51,206 bases of DNA from an uncultured Clostridia bacterium (GCA_904501715.1 CAJGCD010000001.1:1-51206); one strand, 5' to 3'. Numbered from the stretch's first letter, positions 23,104 through 34,136 are shown. Program-made: numbers and translations. The notes: a model not told the origin generated them from the letters alone.

Positions 23104-23132
23104 TTGACATAACCCTTCAAATGTTATATAAT
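23104..23132 (+). promoter_or_regulatory. Consensus SigA promoter of the rnf operon
   Basis: TTGACA (23104-23109), exactly 17 nt, then TATAAT (23127-23132). A second GATTGACATAA copy lies 28 nt upstream. Confidence 0.6.
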
Positions 23133-23201: not shown

Positions 23202-24512
23202 ATGGCATTTTTCTTAAACGGAGTTCACGTTCCTCACAGAAAGAACACCGCAAACTCCGCGGCTGTGAGAATGGATGCTCCGAATACAGTTACCATACCT
23301 ATGGCGATGCATATAGGCAGACCCGCCATACCTATCGTTAAAGTAGGAGATGAAGTAAAGGTCGGCACACTTATAGGTGCGCAGGACGGCTTTATATCCT
23401 CTCCTGTTTACTCGAGCGTTTCGGGAAGAGTAAAGAAGATATCCGACATCCTTCTCTCAAACGGAGCAAAGGCTCCCGCAGTTACCATAGAAAGCGACGG
23501 TCTTATGAGTGATGACGAGTCCCTGACCCCTCCCACCATAGCTTCACGGGAGGACCTTGTAGAAGCCATCAAAAAGAGCGGCGTCGTAGGTCTTGGCGGT
23601 GCGGGCTTCCCTACTTACGTGAAATTTTCGGTTGAGTCCGAAAAGGTAGACGAGCTTATTATAAACGGAGCAGAGTGCGAGCCCTATATCACAAGCGACT
23701 CCAACACTATGATAAACCGCTCCGAGGATATGGCTTACGGAATAGAGCTTATCATAAAATACTTTGACCCCAAGAGAGTTATAATCGGAATAGAGAGCAA
23801 CAAAAAAGCAGCTATCGCTTCTATGAAGGCGCTCGCAAATACAGATGCCCGTATAAGCGTAAAGGTTCTTCCCTCGGTATATCCCCAAGGCGGAGAAAAG
23901 GTGCTTGTGTATCACACTACGGGTAAAGCAATACCTATGGGCAAGCTTCCAATTGACGTTGGCTGTATCGTCTGCAATTGCACAACTATTGCGGCAATCG
24001 GAAGCTACGCAAAAACGGGAATGCCCTTGGTCAAAAAGTGTGTAACCGTAGACGGCGGTGCCGTAAAGGAGCCTAAGAACGTTATTGTTCCCATAGGAAC
24101 AAGCATCAAAGAGCTCATAGAATTCTGCGGCGGTCTTACCTCCGCTCCCGAAAAGGTTCTTTACGGAGGTCCTATGATGGGTATAGCCATCCCCGATATG
24201 GATGCCCCCGTGCTGAAGAACACAAATGCGGTGCTGGCGCTTACAACTAAGGAGGCAAAAACTCCCGAGGCTTCTGCCTGCATACGCTGCGGCTCTTGTC
24301 TTAATACCTGCCCATTTGGTATAAATCCCGCGGGCATTGCAGCCGCTTTGACAAAAAAGGATTTTGAAACAGTAGAAAAGCTTGGAATAAATCTCTGTAT
24401 GGAATGCGGCTGCTGTAGCTTTGTCTGCCCCGCTCACATTCCGCTTGTGCAGAATAACAAGCTCGCTAAGGCGGCTCTCAGAGAAGAAAAAACAAAGGAG
24501 GATAGGAAATAA
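23202..24512 (+). CDS. rnfC: Rnf complex subunit C (NADH-binding, 2x[4Fe-4S])
   Basis: I prefer the start MAFFLNGVHVPHRK (23202). Motifs: GLGGAGFPT, INGAECEPYITSD, CIRCGSCLNTCP and CMECGCCSFVCP. Confidence 0.9.
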   Translation: MAFFLNGVHVPHRKNTANSAAVRMDAPNTVTIPMAMHIGRPAIPIVKVGDEVKVGTLIGAQDGFISSPVYSSVSGRVKKISDILLSNGAKAPAVTIESDGLMSDDESLTPPTIASREDLVEAIKKSGVVGLGGAGFPTYVKFSVESEKVDELIINGAECEPYITSDSNTMINRSEDMAYGIELIIKYFDPKRVIIGIESNKKAAIASMKALANTDARISVKVLPSVYPQGGEKVLVYHTTGKAIPMGKLPIDVGCIVCNCTTIAAIGSYAKTGMPLVKKCVTVDGGAVKEPKNVIVPIGTSIKELIEFCGGLTSAPEKVLYGGPMMGIAIPDMDAPVLKNTNAVLALTTKEAKTPEASACIRCGSCLNTCPFGINPAGIAAALTKKDFETVEKLGINLCMECGCCSFVCPAHIPLVQNNKLAKAALREEKTKEDRK

Positions 24513-25435
24513 TGGATACTAAGCTTCACCTTTCCGCTTCTCCCCATATACATAGCGGCCGCTCGACCCAAAAGATAATGCTTGACGTTATTATCGCGCT
24601 TATGCCTACCTCTATTGTAGGCACCGTGGTATTCGGTCTGCGCGCCTTAGCTGTAATTGCGATATGTATCGCTACCTGCGTGCTCTCGGAATTTCTCTTT
24701 AATCTTGCTATAAAGAAAAAGCAGACTATAGGCGACCTCAGCGCCATAGTTACGGGACTTCTTCTGGCGCTCAACCTCCCCGCGACCCTTCCTCTTTGGC
24801 AGGCAGCGGTAGGAAGTTTCTTTGCTATCGTGGTAGTTAAATGCATTTTCGGCGGCATTGGTAAAAACCTTGTAAACCCCGCTATAACCGCAAGAGTGTT
24901 TATGCTTCTTTCCTTTAGCTCGGCAACCAAAGCAGCCTTCCCCGTTGACTCGGTTTCTTCCGCAACCCCTCTCGGGGAGCTTGAAGCGGGCTACTCCCCT
25001 TCTCTCCTCGACCTTCTGGTCGGAAATCACGGCGGAGCTATCGGCGAGGTCTGCGCGCTGGCTCTTATTGCGGGAGGTATATACCTCATAGGAAGAAAGG
25101 TAATCACCTGGCATATCCCCGTAGCCTTCGTTGGAGCTACCTTCCTGTTTATGTTCTTGTTTGGCGGCTTTGACCTTTATTTCTCCACCGCGCAAATTCT
25201 TTCAGGCGGACTTCTTATAGGAGCTATATTTATGGCTACCGACTACGTGACCTCCCCCTCCTCACCTTGGGGAAAAATAGTATTCGGTATAGGTGCCGCA
25301 TTCCTTACGGTAGTAATACGTCTGTGGGCAAGTCTTCCCGAGGGCGTATCCTATGCCATCCTTCTTATGAACATTATTTGTCCTTACATAGACAAATTGA
25401 CTCCCAGAAAGCTGTTTGGAGGTAAAAAGATATGA
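24512..25435 (+). CDS. rnfD: Rnf complex subunit D (membrane, FMN-linked)
   Basis: SPHIHSGRST at the N-terminus, the flavinylation-type motif VSSATPLG, and TDYVTSP. The start overlaps the rnfC stop by 1 nt. Confidence 0.9.
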   Translation: MDTKLHLSASPHIHSGRSTQKIMLDVIIALMPTSIVGTVVFGLRALAVIAICIATCVLSEFLFNLAIKKKQTIGDLSAIVTGLLLALNLPATLPLWQAAVGSFFAIVVVKCIFGGIGKNLVNPAITARVFMLLSFSSATKAAFPVDSVSSATPLGELEAGYSPSLLDLLVGNHGGAIGEVCALALIAGGIYLIGRKVITWHIPVAFVGATFLFMFLFGGFDLYFSTAQILSGGLLIGAIFMATDYVTSPSSPWGKIVFGIGAAFLTVVIRLWASLPEGVSYAILLMNIICPYIDKLTPRKLFGGKKI

Positions 25436-25938
25436 AAAAGCATTTAAAAAGCGTAGTTTCACTTTTTGCCATTTGCGCAGCGGTAGCAATACTTCTTGCT
25501 ATTACAAATTACTTTACCGCTCCCATAATAGCGGACTATGAAAACAAAAAAGCAAACGCGGCTCTTCTCGAGGTGCTTCCCGATGCGAAGAGCTTTGAAA
25601 AGGTCGATATTAATGAGCTTTCCGAACCCGTAACAGAAGCATATAAAGCCGACAACGGCGGCTACGTTTTCAAGCTGGTTACCGTAGGATACGGCCCCGA
25701 CTTCGTAATTATGTGCGGCGTAAATCCCGACGGAACCGTCAGCAAGGCTATCTGTCTTTCGAGCAACGAAACGCTTGAAAAGGAAAAGAACTACGGAGAA
25801 AGCTTTGCAGGTCTTGACGCAAGCGGCGTTAACTCGGTAGATACCATAGGCGGCGCTACAAAGACCACAAGCGCTTACCGCGATGCGGTAAAAGCTGCTC
25901 TCGATTCCTTTGCTAAGCTTAAAGGAGGTGTCAAGTAA
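25432..25938 (+). CDS. rnfG: Rnf complex subunit G (FMN-binding)
   Basis: N-terminal TM segment. The FMN_bind domain carries the canonical VDTIGGATKTTSAY motif. It overlaps rnfD with ATGA. Confidence 0.85.
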   Translation: MKKHLKSVVSLFAICAAVAILLAITNYFTAPIIADYENKKANAALLEVLPDAKSFEKVDINELSEPVTEAYKADNGGYVFKLVTVGYGPDFVIMCGVNPDGTVSKAICLSSNETLEKEKNYGESFAGLDASGVNSVDTIGGATKTTSAYRDAVKAALDSFAKLKGGVK

Positions 25939-26663
25939 TGAGCAATAAAAATAGTGGAAGCCTTTCCGTTCTGCTTAACGGAATAATCAAGGAAAATCCC
26001 GTTCTCGTGCTTATCCTCGGAACCTGTCCCACTCTCGCAATGACCAAGAACGCGTCGACCGCGCTCGGTATGGGGCTCTCGGTTCTCGTTGTACTTCTTT
26101 GCTCAAACGTTGCGATATCTCTCCTTCGTAAGCTTATACCCGAAACGGTAAGAATCCCCTGCTATATAGTAATCATCGCAGGATTTGTAACCATAGTCGA
26201 AATGATTATACACGCATTTCTCCCCGACCTATACAGCACTATGGGTGTATTCTTAAAGCTCATAACGGTTAACTGTATAATACTTGGCAGAGCTGAAATG
26301 TTCGCAAGCAAAAGCTCTGTTGGCAGATCCGCTCTTGACGGAATAGGAATGGGCGCCGGCTTTACTCTCGCTATCTTTTCAATATCCGTAGTAAGAGAAG
26401 TACTCGGAGCCGCATCCTTTATGGGCAACGAGATTCCCTTCCTTTCGGAATATGCCATAAAGTTCTTTGTGGAGGCTCCCGGAGGAATGCTTGTATACGG
26501 TCTTGCGATTGCCGCTATATACAAGCTTACAAACGGAAAGTTCCCCAAGAAAAAGAGCTTCTCGTGCGAGGGCTGTCCCTCCGCCTCTCTTTGCCATATG
26601 GGCGGTGAATGTTGCGAAAGCGAAGCAAACGCTGTAAAGGAGGAAAACACAGATGCTTGCTAA
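25938..26663 (+). CDS. rnfE: Rnf complex subunit E, with an extra Cys-rich C-terminal tail
   Basis: NPVLVLILGTCPTLA and ITVNCIILGRAE are typical RnfE/NqrD motifs. The last 37 aa or so, [35 protein letters not shown], are additional. Confidence 0.9.
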   Translation: MSNKNSGSLSVLLNGIIKENPVLVLILGTCPTLAMTKNASTALGMGLSVLVVLLCSNVAISLLRKLIPETVRIPCYIVIIAGFVTIVEMIIHAFLPDLYSTMGVFLKLITVNCIILGRAEMFASKSSVGRSALDGIGMGAGFTLAIFSISVVREVLGAASFMGNEIPFLSEYAIKFFVEAPGGMLVYGLAIAAIYKLTNGKFPKKKSFSCEGCPSASLCHMGGECCESEANAVKEENTDAC

Positions 26664-27255
26664 TTTTATAGTTATACTGACCTCCGCGGTTCTCATAAAC
26701 AACTACGTTCTCCGTCAGTTCCTTGGAATCTGCCCATTCCTTGGGGTCTCCAAGAAGCTTGACCAATCGGTGGGAATGGGTATTTCGGTAACCCTCGTAA
26801 TGATTATAGCAACGGCGGCTACGTGGCCCATACAATACTTTATTCTTGATGCGTTTGGTCTCGGATATATGCAGACCATCGTATTTATACTTATAATTGC
26901 CGCTCTGGTGCAAATGATAGAGCTTCTGCTCAAAAAGTTTATCCCTTCTCTTCACAAGGGACTTGGCGTATATCTTCCCCTTATAACCACCAACTGCGCC
27001 GTACTCGGCGTTACCATAAACAACATTACCGACGGATACGGCTTTTTGGAGTCGCTGGTAAGCTCTCTCGGCTGCGGTCTTGGCTTTATGCTGGCTATGG
27101 TCCTCTTTTCGGGTCTGCGTTCAAGAATAGACGAAACGGCTATTCCGAAATGCTTCAGAGGTCTTGCTTGTACTCTTATAGCGGCTTCCTTCATATCTCT
27201 TGCCTTCTTCGGCTTTGACGGACTTGCAGAGACCGTTGGTCAGGCACTTGCCTAA
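26653..27255 (+). CDS. rnfA: Rnf complex subunit A
   Basis: [20 protein letters not shown] and [10 protein letters not shown] are RnfA/NqrE motifs. RBS AGGAGG. Confidence 0.9.
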
Positions 27256-27266
27256 GGAGGTATAAT

Positions 27267-28088
27267 ATGATAATAACAGATATTTTACTTGCTTTAGCGG
27301 TAGTCGGTGCAATAGGACTTATCGCCGCTATCCTTCTTGCTCTTGTTTCTCATTTTTTCAACGTTCCCGAGAACGAGACCAAGAAAAATTTGCGAGAGCA
27401 GCTTCCCGGTGCAAACTGCGGAGCTTGTGGATACAAGGGCTGTGATGATTACGCCACCGCGTTGGCTGAAGGTAAGGAAACAAAAGCAAACCTTTGCATT
27501 CCCGGCGGAGATTCTACCGCGTCAAAGCTTTGCGAGATTCTAGGTGTAGTATCACAGGACGTTGAGGAAAAGGTTGCATTCGTTCACTGCAACGGCAACT
27601 GCGCCGTAACCTCCAAAAAGGCTAAATACGACGGAATACAAACCTGCCGTGCCGCTTCGGCACTGTACGGAGGTCCCAACGATTGCACATACGGCTGTAT
27701 GGGCTTTGGCGACTGTGCCGCAGTTTGTCCCGCCAACGCTATATGCGTAAGGGACGGCATAGCACACGTTGACAGCACAGCCTGCATCGGCTGCGGTCTG
27801 TGCGCCTCAACCTGCCCCAAGAGCATTATATCTCTTATTCCCCAAAATGCAAACACGGTTGTTATGTGCAGCAGCAAGGACAAGGGCGCGGATGCCCGCA
27901 AAAAATGCTCAAATGCGTGTATCGGCTGTAAAAAGTGCGAAAAGGTATGTCCCGAGGGCGCTATCGCAGTATGTGACAATCTGGCAAATATCGATTACAG
28001 CAAATGCACGGGATGCGGACTCTGTGTCCAAGGCTGCCCCACAAATTGTTTGAAATCGGTATGTTTTCCCGCCCTTGCGGAAAAATAA
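27267..28088 (+). CDS. rnfB: Rnf complex subunit B (polyferredoxin)
   Basis: N-terminal TM segment, then the [13 protein letters not shown] cluster domain, then four CxxCxxCxxxCP motifs. Confidence 0.9.
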
Positions 28089-28092
28089 TCTT

Positions 28093-28431
28093 ATGGTAAA
28101 CAAAAAAGCAAGAAACGATATTATATTAATAGCCGCAGTTATACTGATTGCGGCTATTGCCATAGTATGCCTGCTTTTTTTCAAAAAGGAAGGCAAAACG
28201 GCAGTGGTATACGTGGACGGAAGGCTTTACGGCAAATATCAATTGACCGAAAGCATTACCGTAGACATACACTCGGAGAACGGAACTAACCGATTGGTGA
28301 TAACCGACGGAAAAGCAAGCATTGAAGACGCAAGCTGTCCCGACCTCAGATGTGTCCGCCATTATGCCATATCAAGGGACACCGAGCAGATAATCTGCCT
28401 ACCCAACAAGGTAGTTGTATCGGTTGAGTGA
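28093..28431 (+). CDS. NusG domain II-containing membrane-anchored protein (DUF1312-type)
   Basis: TM anchor IILIAAVILIAAIAIVCLLFF, then ...ASCPDLRCVRHYAIS...IICLPNKVVVSVE. I chose the ATG at 28093. The track's start at 28075 is a TTG that overlaps rnfB. No terminator follows rnfB. Confidence 0.65.
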   Translation: MVNKKARNDIILIAAVILIAAIAIVCLLFFKKEGKTAVVYVDGRLYGKYQLTESITVDIHSENGTNRLVITDGKASIEDASCPDLRCVRHYAISRDTEQIICLPNKVVVSVE

Positions 28432-28444
28432 GGTGGGCTATACT

Positions 28445-28948
28445 ATGAATACTAAAACAAAAAAAATAGCATTTGTGGGACTTATGGCATCCCTCGCTAT
28501 GATACTTTCATACATCGAACTGCTTATCCCACCTGTTTTCACCGCCCTGCCGGGAATAAAGATGGGGCTGCCAAACATTGTAATAATATTTACTCTTTAC
28601 AAGCTTGGAATTAAGGAGGCAGCCACTGTTTCCTTTGTAAGGCTTGTGTGCGTATCCTTGCTTTTCGGCAATGCTATGATATTCGCTTACAGCCTCGCGG
28701 GGGCCTTTCTCAGCCTTACGCTTATGTCTGTGCTGAAGCGGCTGGATAGCTTCTCTCCCGTAGGTGTCAGCGTAGCGGGCGCAATAAGCCACAACGCAGG
28801 TCAGACGATGGTTGCCATTATCCTGTTGGAGCGGGTAGAAATAGGATACTATATGTTAGCTCTTACCGTTTCGGGCACTGTGGCGGGCATCCTCGTGGGT
28901 CTTGCGGCGGTATATTTATTAAAAATTCTTGCGAACCTGAAAATTTGA
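28445..28948 (+). CDS. Gx transporter family protein (Hpre_diP_synt_I-type small membrane protein)
   Basis: Start MNTKTKK (28445, RBS GAGGTGGG). About 5 TM segments. LSYIELLIPPVFTALPGIKMGLPNIVIIFTLY resembles this family. Confidence 0.65.
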   Translation: MNTKTKKIAFVGLMASLAMILSYIELLIPPVFTALPGIKMGLPNIVIIFTLYKLGIKEAATVSFVRLVCVSLLFGNAMIFAYSLAGAFLSLTLMSVLKRLDSFSPVGVSVAGAISHNAGQTMVAIILLERVEIGYYMLALTVSGTVAGILVGLAAVYLLKILANLKI

Positions 28949-28969
28949 TAGTATGTTATATCGGCGATG

Positions 28970-28998
28970 TTGACAACTCAACCGTTTTATGATAGAAT
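28970..28998 (+). promoter_or_regulatory. Internal SigA-type promoter ahead of the tandem-domain gene, apbE and PAP2
   Basis: TTGACA (28970-28975), a 17-nt spacer, then TGATAGAAT. Confidence 0.5.
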
Positions 28999-29057
28999 AA
29001 TCCTTGCGTAGGAATGTAGAAATACGATAGATATAACATCAAGAAGGAGATTTCAAA

Positions 29058-30035
29058 ATGAAAAAAATTTCATCACTTCTTTTGGTTGTCCTAATGATAA
29101 TCTCGGTCGTTGTCAGTATATATTTCATAAAAGCAGACGGTACGTTCAAGCTCGGACTTGGAGTTTACAGCGCATATAAAAGCGCAACCGACGTTACCGA
29201 CAGCGCAAACGGCGTAGGCTCATACGTAACCACTGCCGCGGCTGTTTTGCTTGACGAGGACGGAAGAGTAATAAAGTGCGAGATCGACACCGCCGAGGTT
29301 GTGGGTGAATTTACTGCCGAAGGCAAATTCGTAAGCAAGACCGAGTTCAACACAAAGGGTGAGCTTAAGGAAAACTACGGAATGAGCAAAATAGGTAAGA
29401 CCGAGTGGTACAAGCAGGCTGACGCATTCGAAAAGCAGGTAGTCGGTAAGACCGCTAAGGATATCGCTTCTCTTATGGCAAACGACGGCAGAGGCAACGC
29501 TGATGTTATGGCAGCGGGATGCACTATCTACGTAACCGATTTTGTAAAGGCAGTTGACGCAGCTATAAGCAACGCTAAGACCTCAGAATCTACCGCCGAC
29601 GATATCCTAAGACTTGCCCTTATCACCTCTCTCAAGGGCACCGACGCAACCGATAAGGCTGCGGGCGCGCTCGAATTCGAGACTACCTTTGCGGCTGTAA
29701 CACTTGATTCCGATTCCAAGATCACCGCTTGCGCAAACGATTGTCTTGCCGTAAAATTCTCCTTTGACAAGGACGGTAAGATAAGCGGCGAGTACGTGGG
29801 TGAAGTCAAGTCCAAGGCAACACTTAAGGAGGACTACGGAATGAGCGCGGCAGGCAAGACCGAATGGTACAAGCAGGCAGCCGCGTTTGACGCAGCATGC
29901 GTAGGTAAGACCTCCGCTGAGGTTGCGGGTCTTATGGGTACTGACTACAAGGGTGTTGAAGCTGTTCAAAGCGCGGGCTGTACTATTTACGTAAGCGGAA
30001 TGGTACAGGTCATCACTAAAGCGGCAAAGCAATAA
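29058..30035 (+). CDS. Membrane-anchored extracytoplasmic protein with two tandem FMN_bind-like domains (PplA-like architecture, non-canonical motif)
   Basis: N-terminal anchor ISSLLLVVLMIISVVVSIYFI. There is an internal duplication: TKGELKENYGMSKIGKTEWYKQADAFEKQVVGKTAKDIASL...DVMAAGCTIYVTDFVKAVDAA versus SKATLKEDYGMSAAGKTEWYKQAAAFDAACVGKTSAEVAGL...AVQSAGCTIYVSGMVQVITKA. Confidence 0.6.
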   Translation: MKKISSLLLVVLMIISVVVSIYFIKADGTFKLGLGVYSAYKSATDVTDSANGVGSYVTTAAAVLLDEDGRVIKCEIDTAEVVGEFTAEGKFVSKTEFNTKGELKENYGMSKIGKTEWYKQADAFEKQVVGKTAKDIASLMANDGRGNADVMAAGCTIYVTDFVKAVDAAISNAKTSESTADDILRLALITSLKGTDATDKAAGALEFETTFAAVTLDSDSKITACANDCLAVKFSFDKDGKISGEYVGEVKSKATLKEDYGMSAAGKTEWYKQAAAFDAACVGKTSAEVAGLMGTDYKGVEAVQSAGCTIYVSGMVQVITKAAKQ

Positions 30036-30096
30036 AACAATATAAAAATAAGGGTGGGTTCCCCTCCCTTACTTTTAACATTTTCGGGGAGCAAAT

Positions 30097-31158
30097 ATGA
30101 AAAGATTTTTTTGCGCCATATTATTAGCAAGTACACTTACGTGCTGTCTATCGCTTTACTCATGTACAACTCCGAGCAAAAAATATTCGGATTATACCTT
30201 TGATTATTTCGATACGGTGACCTCGGTTACAGGATATGCCCAAAGTCAGGATGAGTTCGACCAAGCTTTTAACCGGATTTCCGATTTGCTCAAGGAATAC
30301 CATCAACTCTTCACAATATACGATAGATACGATGGAATAAATAATCTTACCACAGTAAACGAGCTTTCGGGCGGTATCCACAAGCCCGTAAAGGTTGACA
30401 GAAAAATTATCGATATGCTTCTCTTCTCCAAGGATATGTACTCAAAAACAAACGGCAGAGTAAACATAGCCATGGGAAGCGTTCTGTCTATATGGCACGA
30501 ATACCGACAGAATGGCATCGAAAACCCAAGCACGGCAAAGCTCCCGACAATGGACGAGCTTACCGAGGCGGCAAAGCATACAGATATTGAAAAGCTTATT
30601 ATAGACGAGCAGGCGTCCACAGTCTTTCTTTCCGACCCCGAGATGCTGCTTGACGTAGGAGCTATTGCCAAGGGCTATGCGGTAGAGCAGATAGCGCAGA
30701 CGCTTATACAAAGCGGTATTACGGGCTACGTCCTCAACGTAGGAGGTAACGTACGCGCCATAGGACTCCGAGGTGACAAAACACCTTGGGTAGCGGGAAT
30801 AGACGATCCCAACGGGACAGAAAGCTCGCCCTATTACGCCACCCTTGCCCTTGAGGACCGCTCACTTGTGACCAGCGGCTCCTACCAACGCTATTATACA
30901 GTGAACGGCAAGGACTATAATCATATCATAGACCCCGACACACTTATGCCCGCCGAAAGATATATCTCTGTTTCTATCCTTTGCGAGAGCTCGGCTGTTG
31001 CCGATGCCCTCTCAACCGCTCTTTTCTGTATGAGCGTGGAGGACGGGACGGCTATACTTGACAGCTTCGGTGACGTAGAGGCTATGTGGGTGTCGCCCGA
31101 CGGTGATATACAATATTCAAAAGGATTTTCAAAATATATACAAGGAGATAACACATGA
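30097..31158 (+). CDS. apbE: FAD:protein FMN transferase (ApbE family) lipoprotein
   Basis: Lipobox LSLYSC. ApbE motifs: FDYFDTVTSV, AMGSVLSIWH, DVGAIAKGYAVEQ, NVGGNVRAIG, LVTSGSYQRYY, YNHIIDPDT and ADALSTALF. Confidence 0.9.
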   Translation: MKRFFCAILLASTLTCCLSLYSCTTPSKKYSDYTFDYFDTVTSVTGYAQSQDEFDQAFNRISDLLKEYHQLFTIYDRYDGINNLTTVNELSGGIHKPVKVDRKIIDMLLFSKDMYSKTNGRVNIAMGSVLSIWHEYRQNGIENPSTAKLPTMDELTEAAKHTDIEKLIIDEQASTVFLSDPEMLLDVGAIAKGYAVEQIAQTLIQSGITGYVLNVGGNVRAIGLRGDKTPWVAGIDDPNGTESSPYYATLALEDRSLVTSGSYQRYYTVNGKDYNHIIDPDTLMPAERYISVSILCESSAVADALSTALFCMSVEDGTAILDSFGDVEAMWVSPDGDIQYSKGFSKYIQGDNT

Positions 31159-31838
31159 TAGCGGATTGGATAAATTCAACCTTTGCGTCCTTTGACTACG
31201 CTATACTTCAATTTTTTCATACTCTTGCCGAGGGCGCGGGAGCAATACTTACACCCATAGCCGAGATATTCGCTCTCATAGGAGATAATGGATATTTCAG
31301 CTTTCTTCTGGCATTCATTCTTCTCTGCTTTCCTAAGACCCGCAAATGCGGCGTATGTATGATCTTCGCCGTAGGCTTTGGGGCGCTTTTTACCAACGTA
31401 GCGATAAAAAATATAGTTGCCCGCCCACGCCCATACGCCTCGGAGATACAGGCGTTTGCCGATTGGTGGAAATACATAGGCGCACCCCTGGAAAGCGAAT
31501 TTTCCTTCCCCTCGGGTCATACCACAGCGGCAATGGCGTCTATGACGGCTCTGTGCATAGCTATGTGGAAGAGCAAAAAATGGCTCCTCGCACCTGCCGC
31601 CGCTTACGTTGTGCTTATGGCGGCATCGAGAAACTACCTTATGGTACACTACCCCACCGACGTTATAGCCGCTTTCATAGTGGGTGGCGCAGCGGCAATA
31701 CTTGCGTGTCTGGCAATAAACGCAGTATGGAAGCTTATAGAGAAGCACTCAGACAAAAAGCTCTTCAATTTCGCATTGAATTTTGACATACTGCATCTGT
31801 TGAAAAAAGAAAAAAAGACGGATGACCCCGCAGCATAA
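31155..31838 (+). CDS. PAP2-family (type 2 phosphatidic acid / lipid phosphate) phosphatase
   Basis: KNIVARPRP, SFPSGHT and SRNYLMVHYPTD are the three PAP2 motifs. It overlaps apbE with ATGA. Confidence 0.8.
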   Translation: MIADWINSTFASFDYAILQFFHTLAEGAGAILTPIAEIFALIGDNGYFSFLLAFILLCFPKTRKCGVCMIFAVGFGALFTNVAIKNIVARPRPYASEIQAFADWWKYIGAPLESEFSFPSGHTTAAMASMTALCIAMWKSKKWLLAPAAAYVVLMAASRNYLMVHYPTDVIAAFIVGGAAAILACLAINAVWKLIEKHSDKKLFNFALNFDILHLLKKEKKTDDPAA

Positions 31839-31856: not shown

Positions 31857-31890
31857 AAAAAGACAGATGAGCTTCTTATCTGTCTTTTTT
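31857..31890 (+). terminator. Rho-independent terminator ending the rnf-apbE-PAP2 block
   Basis: AAAAAGACAGAT...ATCTGTCTTTTTT. Confidence 0.65.
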
Positions 31891-32086: not shown

Positions 32087-32971
32087 ATGAATAACTACTG
32101 CATACTTTATAATCCCTTCTCAGGTAACGGTCAAGGGAAAGAGTCAGTTAAGGCTCTATGCCGAAAGATCGGTGACACCGAATGTATAGATATGACCGCG
32201 CTGGATGGATACGAGGAGTTCTTTGCATCACACCCTGATTCTCACATTATCATATGCGGCGGTGACGGCACACTCAACCGCTTTATCAATGATACCGACG
32301 GCATTGAGATAAGCAACAGCATCTCCTATTACGCCAGCGGAAGCGGAAACGATTTCCTCCGTGACATATCGGGAACAGCGGGAGAGGTGATAAACATCGA
32401 TAAATACATAAAAAATCTTCCCTCCTGCAACGTAAACGGCAAGGACTATAAGTTTATAAACGGAATAGGCTACGGCATCGACGGATACTGCTGCGAGGTA
32501 GGCGACGAGCTGCGCCGCACCTCCGACAAGCCTATAAATTACACGGGCATAGCTATCAAGGGACTTCTTTTCCACTATAAGCCCACAGCCGCTACGGTCA
32601 CCGTTGACGGCGCCCAGCATAAGTTCAAGAAGGTATGGATAGCGCCTACTATGCTCGGCAGATATTACGGCGGCGGTATGATGCCCACACCCGCGCAGGA
32701 CAGACTCAACGGCGAGGGCAGCATTTCCACAATGGTCTTCCACGGAACGGGCAAGCTTCGTACACTTATGATATTCCCCTCGCTTTTCAAGGGAGAGCAC
32801 GTGAAGCACGAAAAAGTAATCTCTATTCTATCGGGTAAGGAGATTACCGTGGAATTTGATTCTCCCAGAGCCCTCCAGGTAGACGGTGAGACCGTTCTCG
32901 ACGTAAAGAGCTATACGGTCCGCGCCTACACCGATACGCCCCTGAAAGAAAAAGAAACAGCCAACGTATAA
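32087..32971 (+). CDS. Diacylglycerol-kinase-catalytic-domain lipid kinase (YegS/BmrU-like)
   Basis: The IIICGGDGTLNRFIN nucleotide-binding motif, in a 294-aa protein. Confidence 0.7.
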   Translation: MNNYCILYNPFSGNGQGKESVKALCRKIGDTECIDMTALDGYEEFFASHPDSHIIICGGDGTLNRFINDTDGIEISNSISYYASGSGNDFLRDISGTAGEVINIDKYIKNLPSCNVNGKDYKFINGIGYGIDGYCCEVGDELRRTSDKPINYTGIAIKGLLFHYKPTAATVTVDGAQHKFKKVWIAPTMLGRYYGGGMMPTPAQDRLNGEGSISTMVFHGTGKLRTLMIFPSLFKGEHVKHEKVISILSGKEITVEFDSPRALQVDGETVLDVKSYTVRAYTDTPLKEKETANV

Positions 32972-33079: not shown

Positions 33080-33108
33080 TTGACAAATCTTCGTTTTTAT
33101 TATATAAT
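33080..33108 (+). promoter_or_regulatory. Consensus SigA promoter
   Basis: TTGACA (33080-33085), 17 nt, then TATAAT (33103-33108). Confidence 0.55.
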
Positions 33109-33137: not shown

Positions 33138-34136
33138 ATGAGAAAAATACTTATAAAAGTGCTCGCCATTTTATGTATATTAACTCTTATCCCCATATTT
33201 TCGGCGTGCAATTCAAACGAACAGCAAACAAACCCAAGCAGTGCTTCGGGATTTCATACCATTACCTTTAACACCAAGGGCGGCTCAAAGATAGCCGATA
33301 TGACAGTAAAGCATGACAGCTTTGCCAAGGCACCTACGCCTCCCACCCTTGAAAATTACGTGTTCTGCCGTTGGCAGACCAGCGAAGGACGTGCATTCTT
33401 CTTCGATATGTACACGGTGGAGGAGGATCTGAATTTAGAGGCTATCTGGATAAAGGCAGACGACCTCTTCAGCCTTGCGGCAATGCCCGACAGCAACGGA
33501 ATAATGATAACAGACATCAAGCGTCAGGAGGACTTTGACGTACTGTACGTTCCCGAAATAATAAACGGAAAGACTGTTGAAGGACTTGGTGCGGGAGCAT
33601 TTGAAAGCGTTATTCCCTCTCATGCCTCAACGATTGTTTTCCCCGACACGATAAGATACGTTGAGGAAAACGCCCTTGCCTCTATTTCCGAGGTAAATAT
33701 AGTTTTGAACGGCACAATAAGCCACATAGAGGAGGAATCCTTCTTTGGAAACGGGCTAATAACCAAGATCACCTTGGGAAAGGGTATGGCATCCATCCCC
33801 TACCGCGCGTTCAGCACCTGTGTTATGCTGAAAACGGCTAACGTACCCGAGGGTGTCACAACCATAGAAGAAAATGCCTTTGAAGCCTGCGAGCGCCTTA
33901 TTACGCTTACACTCCCCTCAACCCTGACTGCTATACAGGATTCCGCCTTCGAGGAATGCACTGCCCTTAAGACCGTATTCTTTGGCGGTACAGAAGAGCA
34001 GTTCGACAATTTAAGCATAGCCGACGGAAACGAGGCAATAGAAAACGCCACTGTATATTATTATTCAGAGGAGCAGCCCACATCGGAGGGTAACTTCTGG
34101 CATTACGACAAAAACCAAACACCTACAATATGGTAA
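33138..34136 (+). CDS. Lipoprotein with a Listeria-Bacteroides (InlB B-type) repeat and a BspA-type leucine-rich repeat domain
   Basis: Lipobox IPIFSAC. HTITFNTKGGSKIADMTV...YVFCRWQTSEG is the repeat. The LRR_5-like units include IRYVEENALASIS, IEEESFFGN, IPYRAFSTC, IEENAFEAC and IQDSAFEEC. Confidence 0.8.
   Translation: MRKILIKVLAILCILTLIPIFSACNSNEQQTNPSSASGFHTITFNTKGGSKIADMTVKHDSFAKAPTPPTLENYVFCRWQTSEGRAFFFDMYTVEEDLNLEAIWIKADDLFSLAAMPDSNGIMITDIKRQEDFDVLYVPEIINGKTVEGLGAGAFESVIPSHASTIVFPDTIRYVEENALASISEVNIVLNGTISHIEEESFFGNGLITKITLGKGMASIPYRAFSTCVMLKTANVPEGVTTIEENAFEACERLITLTLPSTLTAIQDSAFEECTALKTVFFGGTEEQFDNLSIADGNEAIENATVYYYSEEQPTSEGNFWHYDKNQTPTIW

Follow-up and report, generated by a model that had tools for sequence, protein, structure and literature searches.

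We asked what the genes that directly follow rnfCDGEAB in an uncultured gut Clostridia bacterium contribute to the Rnf complex, the chief ion pump in many gut anaerobes that live by fermentation, and whether they open a route for its electrons beyond the membrane. The window, that is the whole 51,206-nucleotide (nt) stretch of DNA analysed (GCA_904501715.1 CAJGCD010000001.1:1-51206), carries behind rnfB a block of five open reading frames (ORFs) at 28093-31838: homologues of eetA and eetB, a gene for a protein of 325 amino acids (aa) called TAN throughout, apbE, and a gene for a PAP2-family membrane phosphatase. A preliminary description of this DNA had treated the block as one five-gene module joining Rnf to flavinylation machinery and to an extra extracytoplasmic flavoprotein. 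We consider a composite explanation probable, in which eetAB goes with rnf, TAN is a separately promoted protein resembling PplA of Listeria, apbE follows it and the PAP2 gene is a passenger; flavinylation of TAN and its feeding by Rnf would complete this picture.

Gene identities and transcription units

The features of the locus, all on the + strand, were as follows.

23104..23132, +: promoter-like site before rnfC, TTGACA-17-TATAAT, 12/12 matches
23202..28088, +: rnfC-rnfD-rnfG-rnfE-rnfA-rnfB, from translations and family matches
23202 (or 23121)-24512, +: rnfC
24512-25435, +: rnfD, motif DSVSSAT
25432-25938, +: rnfG, 168 aa, motif DTIGGAT
25938-26663, +: rnfE
26653-27255, +: rnfA
27267-28088, +: rnfB
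28093-28431, +: eetA homologue (NusG-II), PF07009 (NusG_II), E 2.7e-29, one N-terminal membrane helix followed by the domain
28445-28948, +: eetB homologue ("Gx transporter", Hpre_diP_synt_I), PF07456, E 6.5e-37
28970..28998, +: TAN promoter, TTGACA-17-TAGAAT, -10 element extended by TG, within the 109 nt from eetB to TAN
29058-30035, +: TAN, 325 aa, matching neither Pfam nor NCBIfam, two FMN-bind2-like domains of ~150 aa each
~30043..30077, +: weak terminator-like hairpin after the TAN gene, core AAGGGTGGG-TTC-CCCTCCCTT, then ACTTTTAAC
30097-31158, +: apbE (FAD:protein FMN transferase, probable lipoprotein), PF02424, E 2e-67
31155-31838, +: PAP2-family membrane phosphatase, PF01569, E 4e-20, ATGA overlap with apbE
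31857..31889, +: strong intrinsic terminator, 15-bp stem, then a T run

Direct reading of the sequence confirmed the five ORFs of the preliminary description with their positions and strand, as well as the 109-nt gap and the ATGA overlap of apbE and the PAP2 gene. Only 4 nt separate the rnfB stop from the NusG-II ATG, and 13 nt lie between NusG-II and Gx. All six Rnf subunits (CDGEAB) are encoded upstream, and the flavinylation motifs of RnfG (DTIGGAT) and RnfD (DSVSSAT), earlier read as GGAT and SSAT, are both present in the translations. The RnfE of the window also has a Cys-rich C-terminal tail (26545-26663) whose coding sequence overlaps the rnfA start.

By family membership the two short genes behind rnfB are eetA and eetB, and they are predicted to serve export of flavin adenine dinucleotide (FAD). 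The preliminary description had called their products small membrane proteins of unknown role, which no longer holds. According to Rivera-Lugo et al. 2023 (PMC9973259), FAD is bound by EetB, an ECF-S-like exporter subunit that is required, along with FmnA (ECF-T) and EcfA/EcfA', for supplying exported FAD to FmnB, an enzyme of the ApbE type. The same paper reports that eetB, searched as PF07456, co-localised with eetA in 3,328 genomes, with apbE in 2,169 and with Rnf genes in 572 Clostridia genomes, and Data Set S1 labels PF07009 proteins EetA. Since PF07009 stands for EetA and PF07456 for EetB in that work, the adjacent PF07009 and PF07456 genes of the window identify the pair. The link of eetAB to Rnf in Clostridia is already published. 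In the window's own genome, an assembly that is 81% complete and in which absences are therefore provisional, eetB is a single-copy gene and one ecfA-ecfA'-ecfT operon lies on another contig (C34), with Walker A and LSGGQ motifs. No dedicated fmnA was found beside eetB in this genome, which has a general ecfT only.

The ApbE homologue scored 228 bits against a curated cut-off of 25.6 for PF02424. Its N-terminus carries a hydrophobic signal and candidate lipobox Cys residues, the lipobox being less canonical than that of the relatives. This gene was the sole flavin transferase gene found in the assembly, and because no other such gene was found, it must serve both RnfG and RnfD; RnfG was the only Pfam FMN_bind protein found there. 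The module hence matures Rnf, probably adds a PplA-like flavoprotein, and may have that flavoprotein fed by Rnf.

We next consider how these genes are likely to be transcribed. As the preliminary description had stated, no terminator-like site follows rnfB in a scan of the + strand of the window, and the TAN gene has its own TTGACA-17-TAGAAT promoter at 28970-28998. The terminator at 31857 is the first strong one, as the same description had it, yet not the first of all: the weak hairpin at 30043-30077 (-14.6 kcal/mol, z -2.4, just four T in its tail), which a simple + strand scan overlooked, precedes it. Both signals around TAN recur in related loci. A near-consensus TTGACA-17-TAnnAT, mostly with the TG extension, precedes TAN in 70 of 72 related loci (97%) versus 7% of shuffled controls, and it is kept also in loci having TAN upstream of rnfC. 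A canonical intrinsic terminator, composed of an A-tract, a GC hairpin and a T-tract, occupies the TAN-apbE gap in 72 of 75 related loci (96%), with a median z of -4.5. Across related loci the median gaps were 1 nt for rnfB-eetA (74 loci), 11 nt for eetA-eetB, 85 nt for eetB-TAN and 61 nt for TAN-apbE. As to a riboswitch or other regulatory element, only the promoter was conserved in the 109-nt gap, no Rfam search having been made.

Since the TAN promoter and the terminator after TAN are both conserved, the architecture reads as a composite of three units: a promoter with rnfCDGEAB-eetAB, a second promoter with TAN and a leaky terminator, and apbE (with PAP2 in the window) ending in a terminator. 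Such an arrangement would yield far more TAN than ApbE, as fits a substrate and its enzyme. Read-through from rnf into TAN is likely, because no terminator lies between eetB and the TAN promoter. The single five-gene module of the preliminary description thus dissolves: eetAB goes with rnfB, TAN has a promoter and a terminator of its own, TAN and apbE move as a pair, and the PAP2 gene occurs at this position only in the window and in one relative, locus L001 (related loci are numbered L001 and so on).

The TAN family and its predicted attachment sites

What kind of protein is TAN? Its two halves are 42% identical, an internal tandem duplication that bears out the tandem-domain protein of the preliminary description. 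A confident AlphaFold model (pLDDT 94, pTM 0.87) has two domains of ~150 aa, each with three long strands and then helices. The protein has more than 1,384 close homologues, nearly all of ~325 aa and without a Pfam domain or an informative name, and a profile search of 1.84 billion representative proteins returned 1,854 TAN-family clusters at 50% identity, with members having 2, 4 or 6 copies of the domain. TAN of the window begins with a hydrophobic signal-anchor that lacks a lipobox Cys, as it does in its closest relatives, and 76 of 80 relatives have a lipobox. The N-terminal hydrophobic helix, the lipobox of the relatives and the model together characterise TAN as an extracytoplasmic, membrane-tethered protein of two domains.

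TAN is probably flavinylated by ApbE, with covalent flavin mononucleotide (FMN) predicted at T156 (29523-29525) and T309 (29982-29984), both inside an AGCT motif. In 30 aligned homologues AGCT is invariant in the first half; in the second half A, G and C are invariant and the Thr is nearly so. Nearly all of 80 related loci have the two AGCT sites. In the wider family the same position holds SSVT, ASVT, ASCT, AQCS or the canonical SGAT, and the motif Thr/Ser is retained in all but one of the domains examined, with the Cys replaced by Val or Ala. Retention of Thr/Ser while the preceding residue varies is what is expected of a flavinylation site. In a model substrate, replacing Ala by Val at motif position -1 lowers flavinylation without abolishing it (review PMC12052999).

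The likeness of the TAN domain to known FMN-binding domains was seen through intermediates. The TAN family profile matched PDB 2KZX with E 4e-7 when built on the whole protein and 2e-8 when built on one domain, and AGCT was aligned on the SGAT of 2KZX. The matched stretch of 2KZX itself scores as Pfam FMN_bind (E 1.7e-5), which TAN does not. Some members of the wider family have canonical FMN_bind domains fused at the N-terminus. Huang, Meheust, Barquera and Light (2024, mSystems, PMC11334425) described an FMN-bind2 type of ~160 aa, present in even copy number, found by BLAST and having no InterPro ID (example NTW96865.1), in which the faces of the beta-sheets pair into a pseudo-symmetric unit with two attachment sites. 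TAN resembles it, as far as a published description allows the likening, in its ~150-aa domains, three extended beta strands, even copy numbers and lack of an InterPro ID, and also in that its two domains are predicted to pack into a single compact pseudo-symmetric unit carrying two attachment sites. Unlike what we describe here, that paper gives neither an Rnf genomic context nor the AGCT variant motif. We therefore set TAN beside FMN-bind2 by description only, as two divergent FMN-binding domains that fit it. The predicted FMN-bind fold draws on the sequence bridges and on that published description rather than on a direct structural match.

Several results speak against this assignment. Pfam and NCBIfam searches with TAN and with its halves gave nothing, Pfam FMN_bind included, even at E <10. 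Neither domain has the [S/T]-G-A-[S/T] motif, having A-G-C-T in its place; relative to D-x-x-[ST]-G-A-[ST] two positions differ and the conserved Asp stands one residue further off. An hhalign comparison of the TAN domain with RnfG was weak (24% probability), with the motifs aligned. When the whole TAN model was compared with the PDB by Foldseek, only meaningless matches were obtained (major histocompatibility complex proteins, porins), and no FMN_bind structure was in the top 50. For TAN domain 1 (29133-29585) the best Foldseek matches were IscU iron-sulphur (Fe-S) scaffolds, with a probability of ~1, TM-scores of 0.35-0.46 and a root-mean-square deviation (rmsd) of ~9 Å, and no FMN_bind structures were returned.

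In IscU, the third ligand Cys lies just before the C-terminal helix, and TAN and IscU have in common a motif of small residue, Cys and Ser/Thr at that place. The resemblance is probably one of generic topology. We rejected an Fe-S or thiol role of the invariant Cys as the function of the family, given its replacement by Val or Ala in the wider family.

Apart from the tandem forms, four loci (L090, L091, L098 and L099) have single-domain TAN relatives of ~200 aa that stand alone, without apbE nearby. The relative in L090 reads SSCT at the motif and matches Pfam FMN_bind weakly (E 1e-3).

Rnf-linked and Ndh2-linked loci

Is the arrangement peculiar to this genome? The synteny set comprised 80 species genomes of Clostridia, every one assembled from metagenomes and many bearing the label Oscillospiraceae or Acutalibacteraceae. 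The order rnfCDGEAB-eetA-eetB-TAN-apbE held across these ~80 species genomes wherever the contig was long enough, so that synteny is not limited to the window's genome. In five loci TAN-apbE stands upstream of rnfC, with eetAB remaining behind rnfB. We also sampled the same order evenly (301 genomes, 39 with a TAN-family gene and 229 with an RnfG) and examined 18 regions. In the regions examined, two-domain TAN members stood directly upstream of apbE in all but L086, that is, wherever apbE was nearby, and some loci had rnf beside TAN-apbE in several arrangements.

Four sampled genomes had a different context, ndh2-dmkB-dmkA-eetA-eetB-TAN-apbE, in which a 640-685-aa Pyr_redox_2 NDH-2, a polyprenyl synthase and a UbiA prenyltransferase precede eetA, eetB, TAN and apbE. 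In a fifth genome (L086) a UbiA gene (dmkA) lies directly upstream of TAN, and ndh2, eetAB and apbE were not found beside it. The motif of TAN proteins in the Ndh2 context is mostly D-L-x-S-S-V-T. None of the 14 genomes with Rnf-linked TAN that were tested (94-100% complete) had a UbiA-family gene, and all five Ndh2-linked ones had it, adjoining TAN; in the window's own 81%-complete assembly tblastn likewise found neither NDH-2 nor UbiA. By gene content, quinone synthesis separates the Rnf-linked from the Ndh2-linked context.

In a maximum-likelihood tree of 30 family members the AGCT forms make up one Rnf-linked clade. Because three more Rnf-linked members nest among the Ndh2-linked SSVT forms, at least 2-3 switches of context are required.

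Neither rnf nor ndh2 is near TAN-apbE in one locus (L092; G245:C9, 8872-11919), where the neighbour is a Pyr_redox_2 protein of 324 aa resembling thioredoxin reductase. This protein may be a third kind of donor.

RnfG itself occurs in two forms. In the window and in L001 it is short (168 aa), with a single FMN domain and one flavinylation motif. In ~65 of the 80 related loci it has ~390 aa, two FMN domains and two D-x-[IV]-[SA]-G-[AS]-T motifs. Within the even sample the two-domain form was found in 12 genomes, exactly those with a high-scoring, AGCT-type, Rnf-linked TAN, versus 0 of the ~217 genomes with a short RnfG. The window's genome is an exception, combining an AGCT-type TAN with the 168-aa RnfG. 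In Meheust 2021 (PMC8238504), multi-flavinylated RnfG was proposed as a second path to extracytosolic acceptors; relatives of the window have such a two-FMN-domain RnfG, unlike the window with its single domain. The window lineage is a derived variant: its RnfG has one FMN domain and its TAN a signal-anchor, the terminator is weaker and a PAP2 gene has been added.

The closest known parallel lies in Listeria. A locus for flavin-based extracellular electron transfer (EET) in Listeria monocytogenes was reportedly the subject of Light et al. 2018. It comprises ndh2, dmkA, dmkB, eetA, eetB, pplA, fmnB/apbE and fmnA, as also described by Rivera-Lugo et al. 2023 (PMC9973259). The locus of the window has homologues of eetA, eetB and apbE in the same relative order, with an outward-facing two-domain protein directly upstream of apbE, and related Oscillospirales carry the full ndh2-dmkB-dmkA-eetA-eetB-TAN-apbE set with TAN in the slot of PplA. 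It differs in that the membrane donor genes are rnfCDGEAB instead of ndh2/dmkA/dmkB, the Rnf-linked genomes being without a UbiA prenyltransferase, and in that a general ecfT takes the place of a dedicated fmnA. TAN differs from PplA in having AGCT in place of SGAT, in escaping recognition by Pfam FMN_bind and, in the window, in having a signal-anchor where PplA has a lipobox. Judged by position and domain plan, TAN is the Clostridia counterpart of Listeria PplA. The analogy to PplA drawn in the preliminary description was sound, the TAN family filling the PplA position in Listeria-type loci of the same order.

Clusters of rnf, eetB and apbE in Clostridia are likewise known from the parts of PMC9973259 and PMC8238504 that we searched, and the candidate acceptor TAN is not mentioned in those parts. 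According to comparative work of 2019 (PMC7074142), cad(pplA)-apbE pairs are confined to genomes that lack rnf. The Rnf-linked TAN-apbE loci contradict this statement, likely because a family so divergent escaped recognition as PplA-like. The greater part of the module has been described before; new are the unannotated PplA-like family and the variation in its attachment motifs, the conservation of its promoter and terminator, and the way in which it goes either with Rnf or with Ndh2/UbiA.

The mechanism that we propose runs as follows. The eetA-eetB pair would be translationally coupled to rnfB and transcribed with rnfCDGEAB; EetB together with the general EcfT/EcfA/EcfA' would carry FAD across to the membrane's outer face, with EetA as a conserved partner. 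TAN would be made from a strong sigma-70-type promoter ahead of a leaky terminator, as a membrane-tethered, outward-facing double-domain protein, and apbE, presumably the cell's only flavin transferase gene, would be expressed by read-through. ApbE would use the exported FAD to flavinylate RnfG, RnfD and, by our proposal, TAN at T156 and T309. In a cell free of quinones, TAN could then take electrons from the outward-facing FMN of Rnf (RnfG) and could pass them to soluble flavins or other extracellular acceptors. The core of the preliminary description is upheld: the block connects Rnf both with flavinylation machinery and with a further candidate flavoprotein that is extracytoplasmic and has two domains. 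We infer an electron outlet or inlet from Rnf, with comparative evidence in its support.

A bolder form of this proposal would make Rnf the donor of a quinone-free, cytochrome-free extracellular electron transfer, with reduced ferredoxin or NADH as input and a path from the FMN of RnfG, joined in most relatives by a second FMN domain, through an abundant TAN to soluble flavins, Fe(III), oxygen or host-derived acceptors. Rnf and Ndh2/demethylmenaquinone would then be interchangeable inputs to a common EetAB-PplA-ApbE output in gut Clostridia. We hold this bolder form to be possible and the odds to be rather against it.

The principal competing explanation is that the cassette serves maturation only, TAN being a flavoprotein that is not fed by Rnf and that has another donor or acts in surface flavin binding or scavenging. 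We judge it unlikely, though a serious contender. The pair eetB and apbE is known to cluster with many different flavinylated systems, and the clustering with Rnf could stem only from a shared need for ApbE and exported FAD. Three Ndh2-context genomes also score for RnfG; in two of them it is found on a contig other than that of the Ndh2-type locus, with which apbE remains, so that Rnf can be matured without adjacency. TAN's own promoter and terminator make its regulation separable from that of Rnf, and L092 has TAN-apbE with neither system nearby. Also against the composite explanation, the window's genome departs from the common pattern, having a TAN without lipobox and an RnfG without a second FMN domain, so that a relay through a second RnfG domain cannot apply here; and the genomes with two-domain RnfG fall into just four coded families, 8 of the 12 into one genus, so that the co-occurrence with TAN may be shared inheritance. 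Against the view of maturation only, Rnf was the only membrane redox complex beside TAN in 14 of 14 quinone-less genomes, the two-FMN-domain RnfG was confined to genomes with this type of TAN, and the linkage to Rnf arose more than once in the TAN-family tree. An alternative donor was not found in the window's genome either (NDH-2 and UbiA, tblastn, 81% complete).

Two further explanations concern TAN itself. TAN might not be a substrate of ApbE at all; as a surface protein it might, for instance, bind flavin non-covalently, bind a metal or work through the thiol of its invariant Cys. The non-canonical AGCT motif, the missing Pfam FMN_bind match, the IscU scaffolds as best single-domain Foldseek matches and the invariance of the Cys within the Rnf-linked clade would fit this. 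We nevertheless think it very improbable: across the wider family the Cys gives way to Val or Ala while Thr/Ser is retained, some members have the canonical SGAT at the same position, TAN is universally adjacent to apbE, the TM-scores with IscU stay below 0.5 at an rmsd of ~9 Å, and an Fe-S scaffold outside the cell is implausible. Least probable of all, in our estimate, is that TAN is an accessory or assembly factor of Rnf, docking on RnfG or handing FAD from EetB to ApbE, and not an outward electron carrier. Its tight conservation within rnf clusters and its co-occurrence with the unusual long RnfG are compatible with such a role. The same family, however, occurs in loci of the Ndh2/demethylmenaquinone type without Rnf nearby and in L092 with neither system nearby; the strong dedicated promoter suggests that TAN is far more abundant than a stoichiometric subunit, and forms with 4 to 6 domains resemble relay proteins.

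Should the composite explanation with Rnf as donor be true, an outward branch of Rnf would let quinone-less bacteria shed excess reducing power, which would alter models of their redox balance. The PplA-like family has thousands of members and no annotation, and surveys of flavinylated proteins based on Pfam FMN_bind would miss them. The AGCT and SSVT sites, if flavinylated, would broaden the recognition motif now accepted for ApbE. The clean split between Rnf-linked loci without UbiA and Ndh2-linked loci with UbiA yields a direct, testable prediction.

The PAP2 gene and other neighbours

Of 81 loci, just two had a PAP2 gene after apbE: that of the window and L001, which has a TAN 89% identical to the window's. 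Because it is restricted at this position to the window and its closest relative, the PAP2 gene is best read as a lineage-specific passenger outside the conserved system. We rejected the idea that it supplies the genome's only undecaprenyl-diphosphatase, as a BacA gene and another PAP2 gene lie elsewhere in the window's genome. That the product acts as an outward-facing phosphatase on AMP or FMN set free close to ApbE is no more than conceivable. In both the window and L001 a gene for a YegS/DAGK-type lipid kinase (32087-32971 in the window) comes directly after PAP2, behind the terminator. The PAP2 and kinase genes may be a lipid-related pair unrelated to Rnf.

Other genes were seen at or near the cluster. 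A small membrane protein of the DUF1622 family (PF07784, E 5e-18) is encoded adjoining the cluster in 28 of 80 loci (L005, L006, L008, L023 and others), where its gene follows apbE, precedes rnfC or stands between the two; none adjoins the cluster of the window. In four metagenome-assembled genomes labelled Lachnospiraceae (L018, L031, L041 and L072), DUF2325 and DUF3793 genes are inserted between TAN and apbE. Further downstream in the window, at 33138-34136, lies a lipoprotein gene with its own perfect promoter, TTGACA-17-TATAAT, at 33080-33108; the product has leucine-rich repeats of the BspA type (LRR_5, E 6e-36) and a Listeria-Bacteroides repeat.

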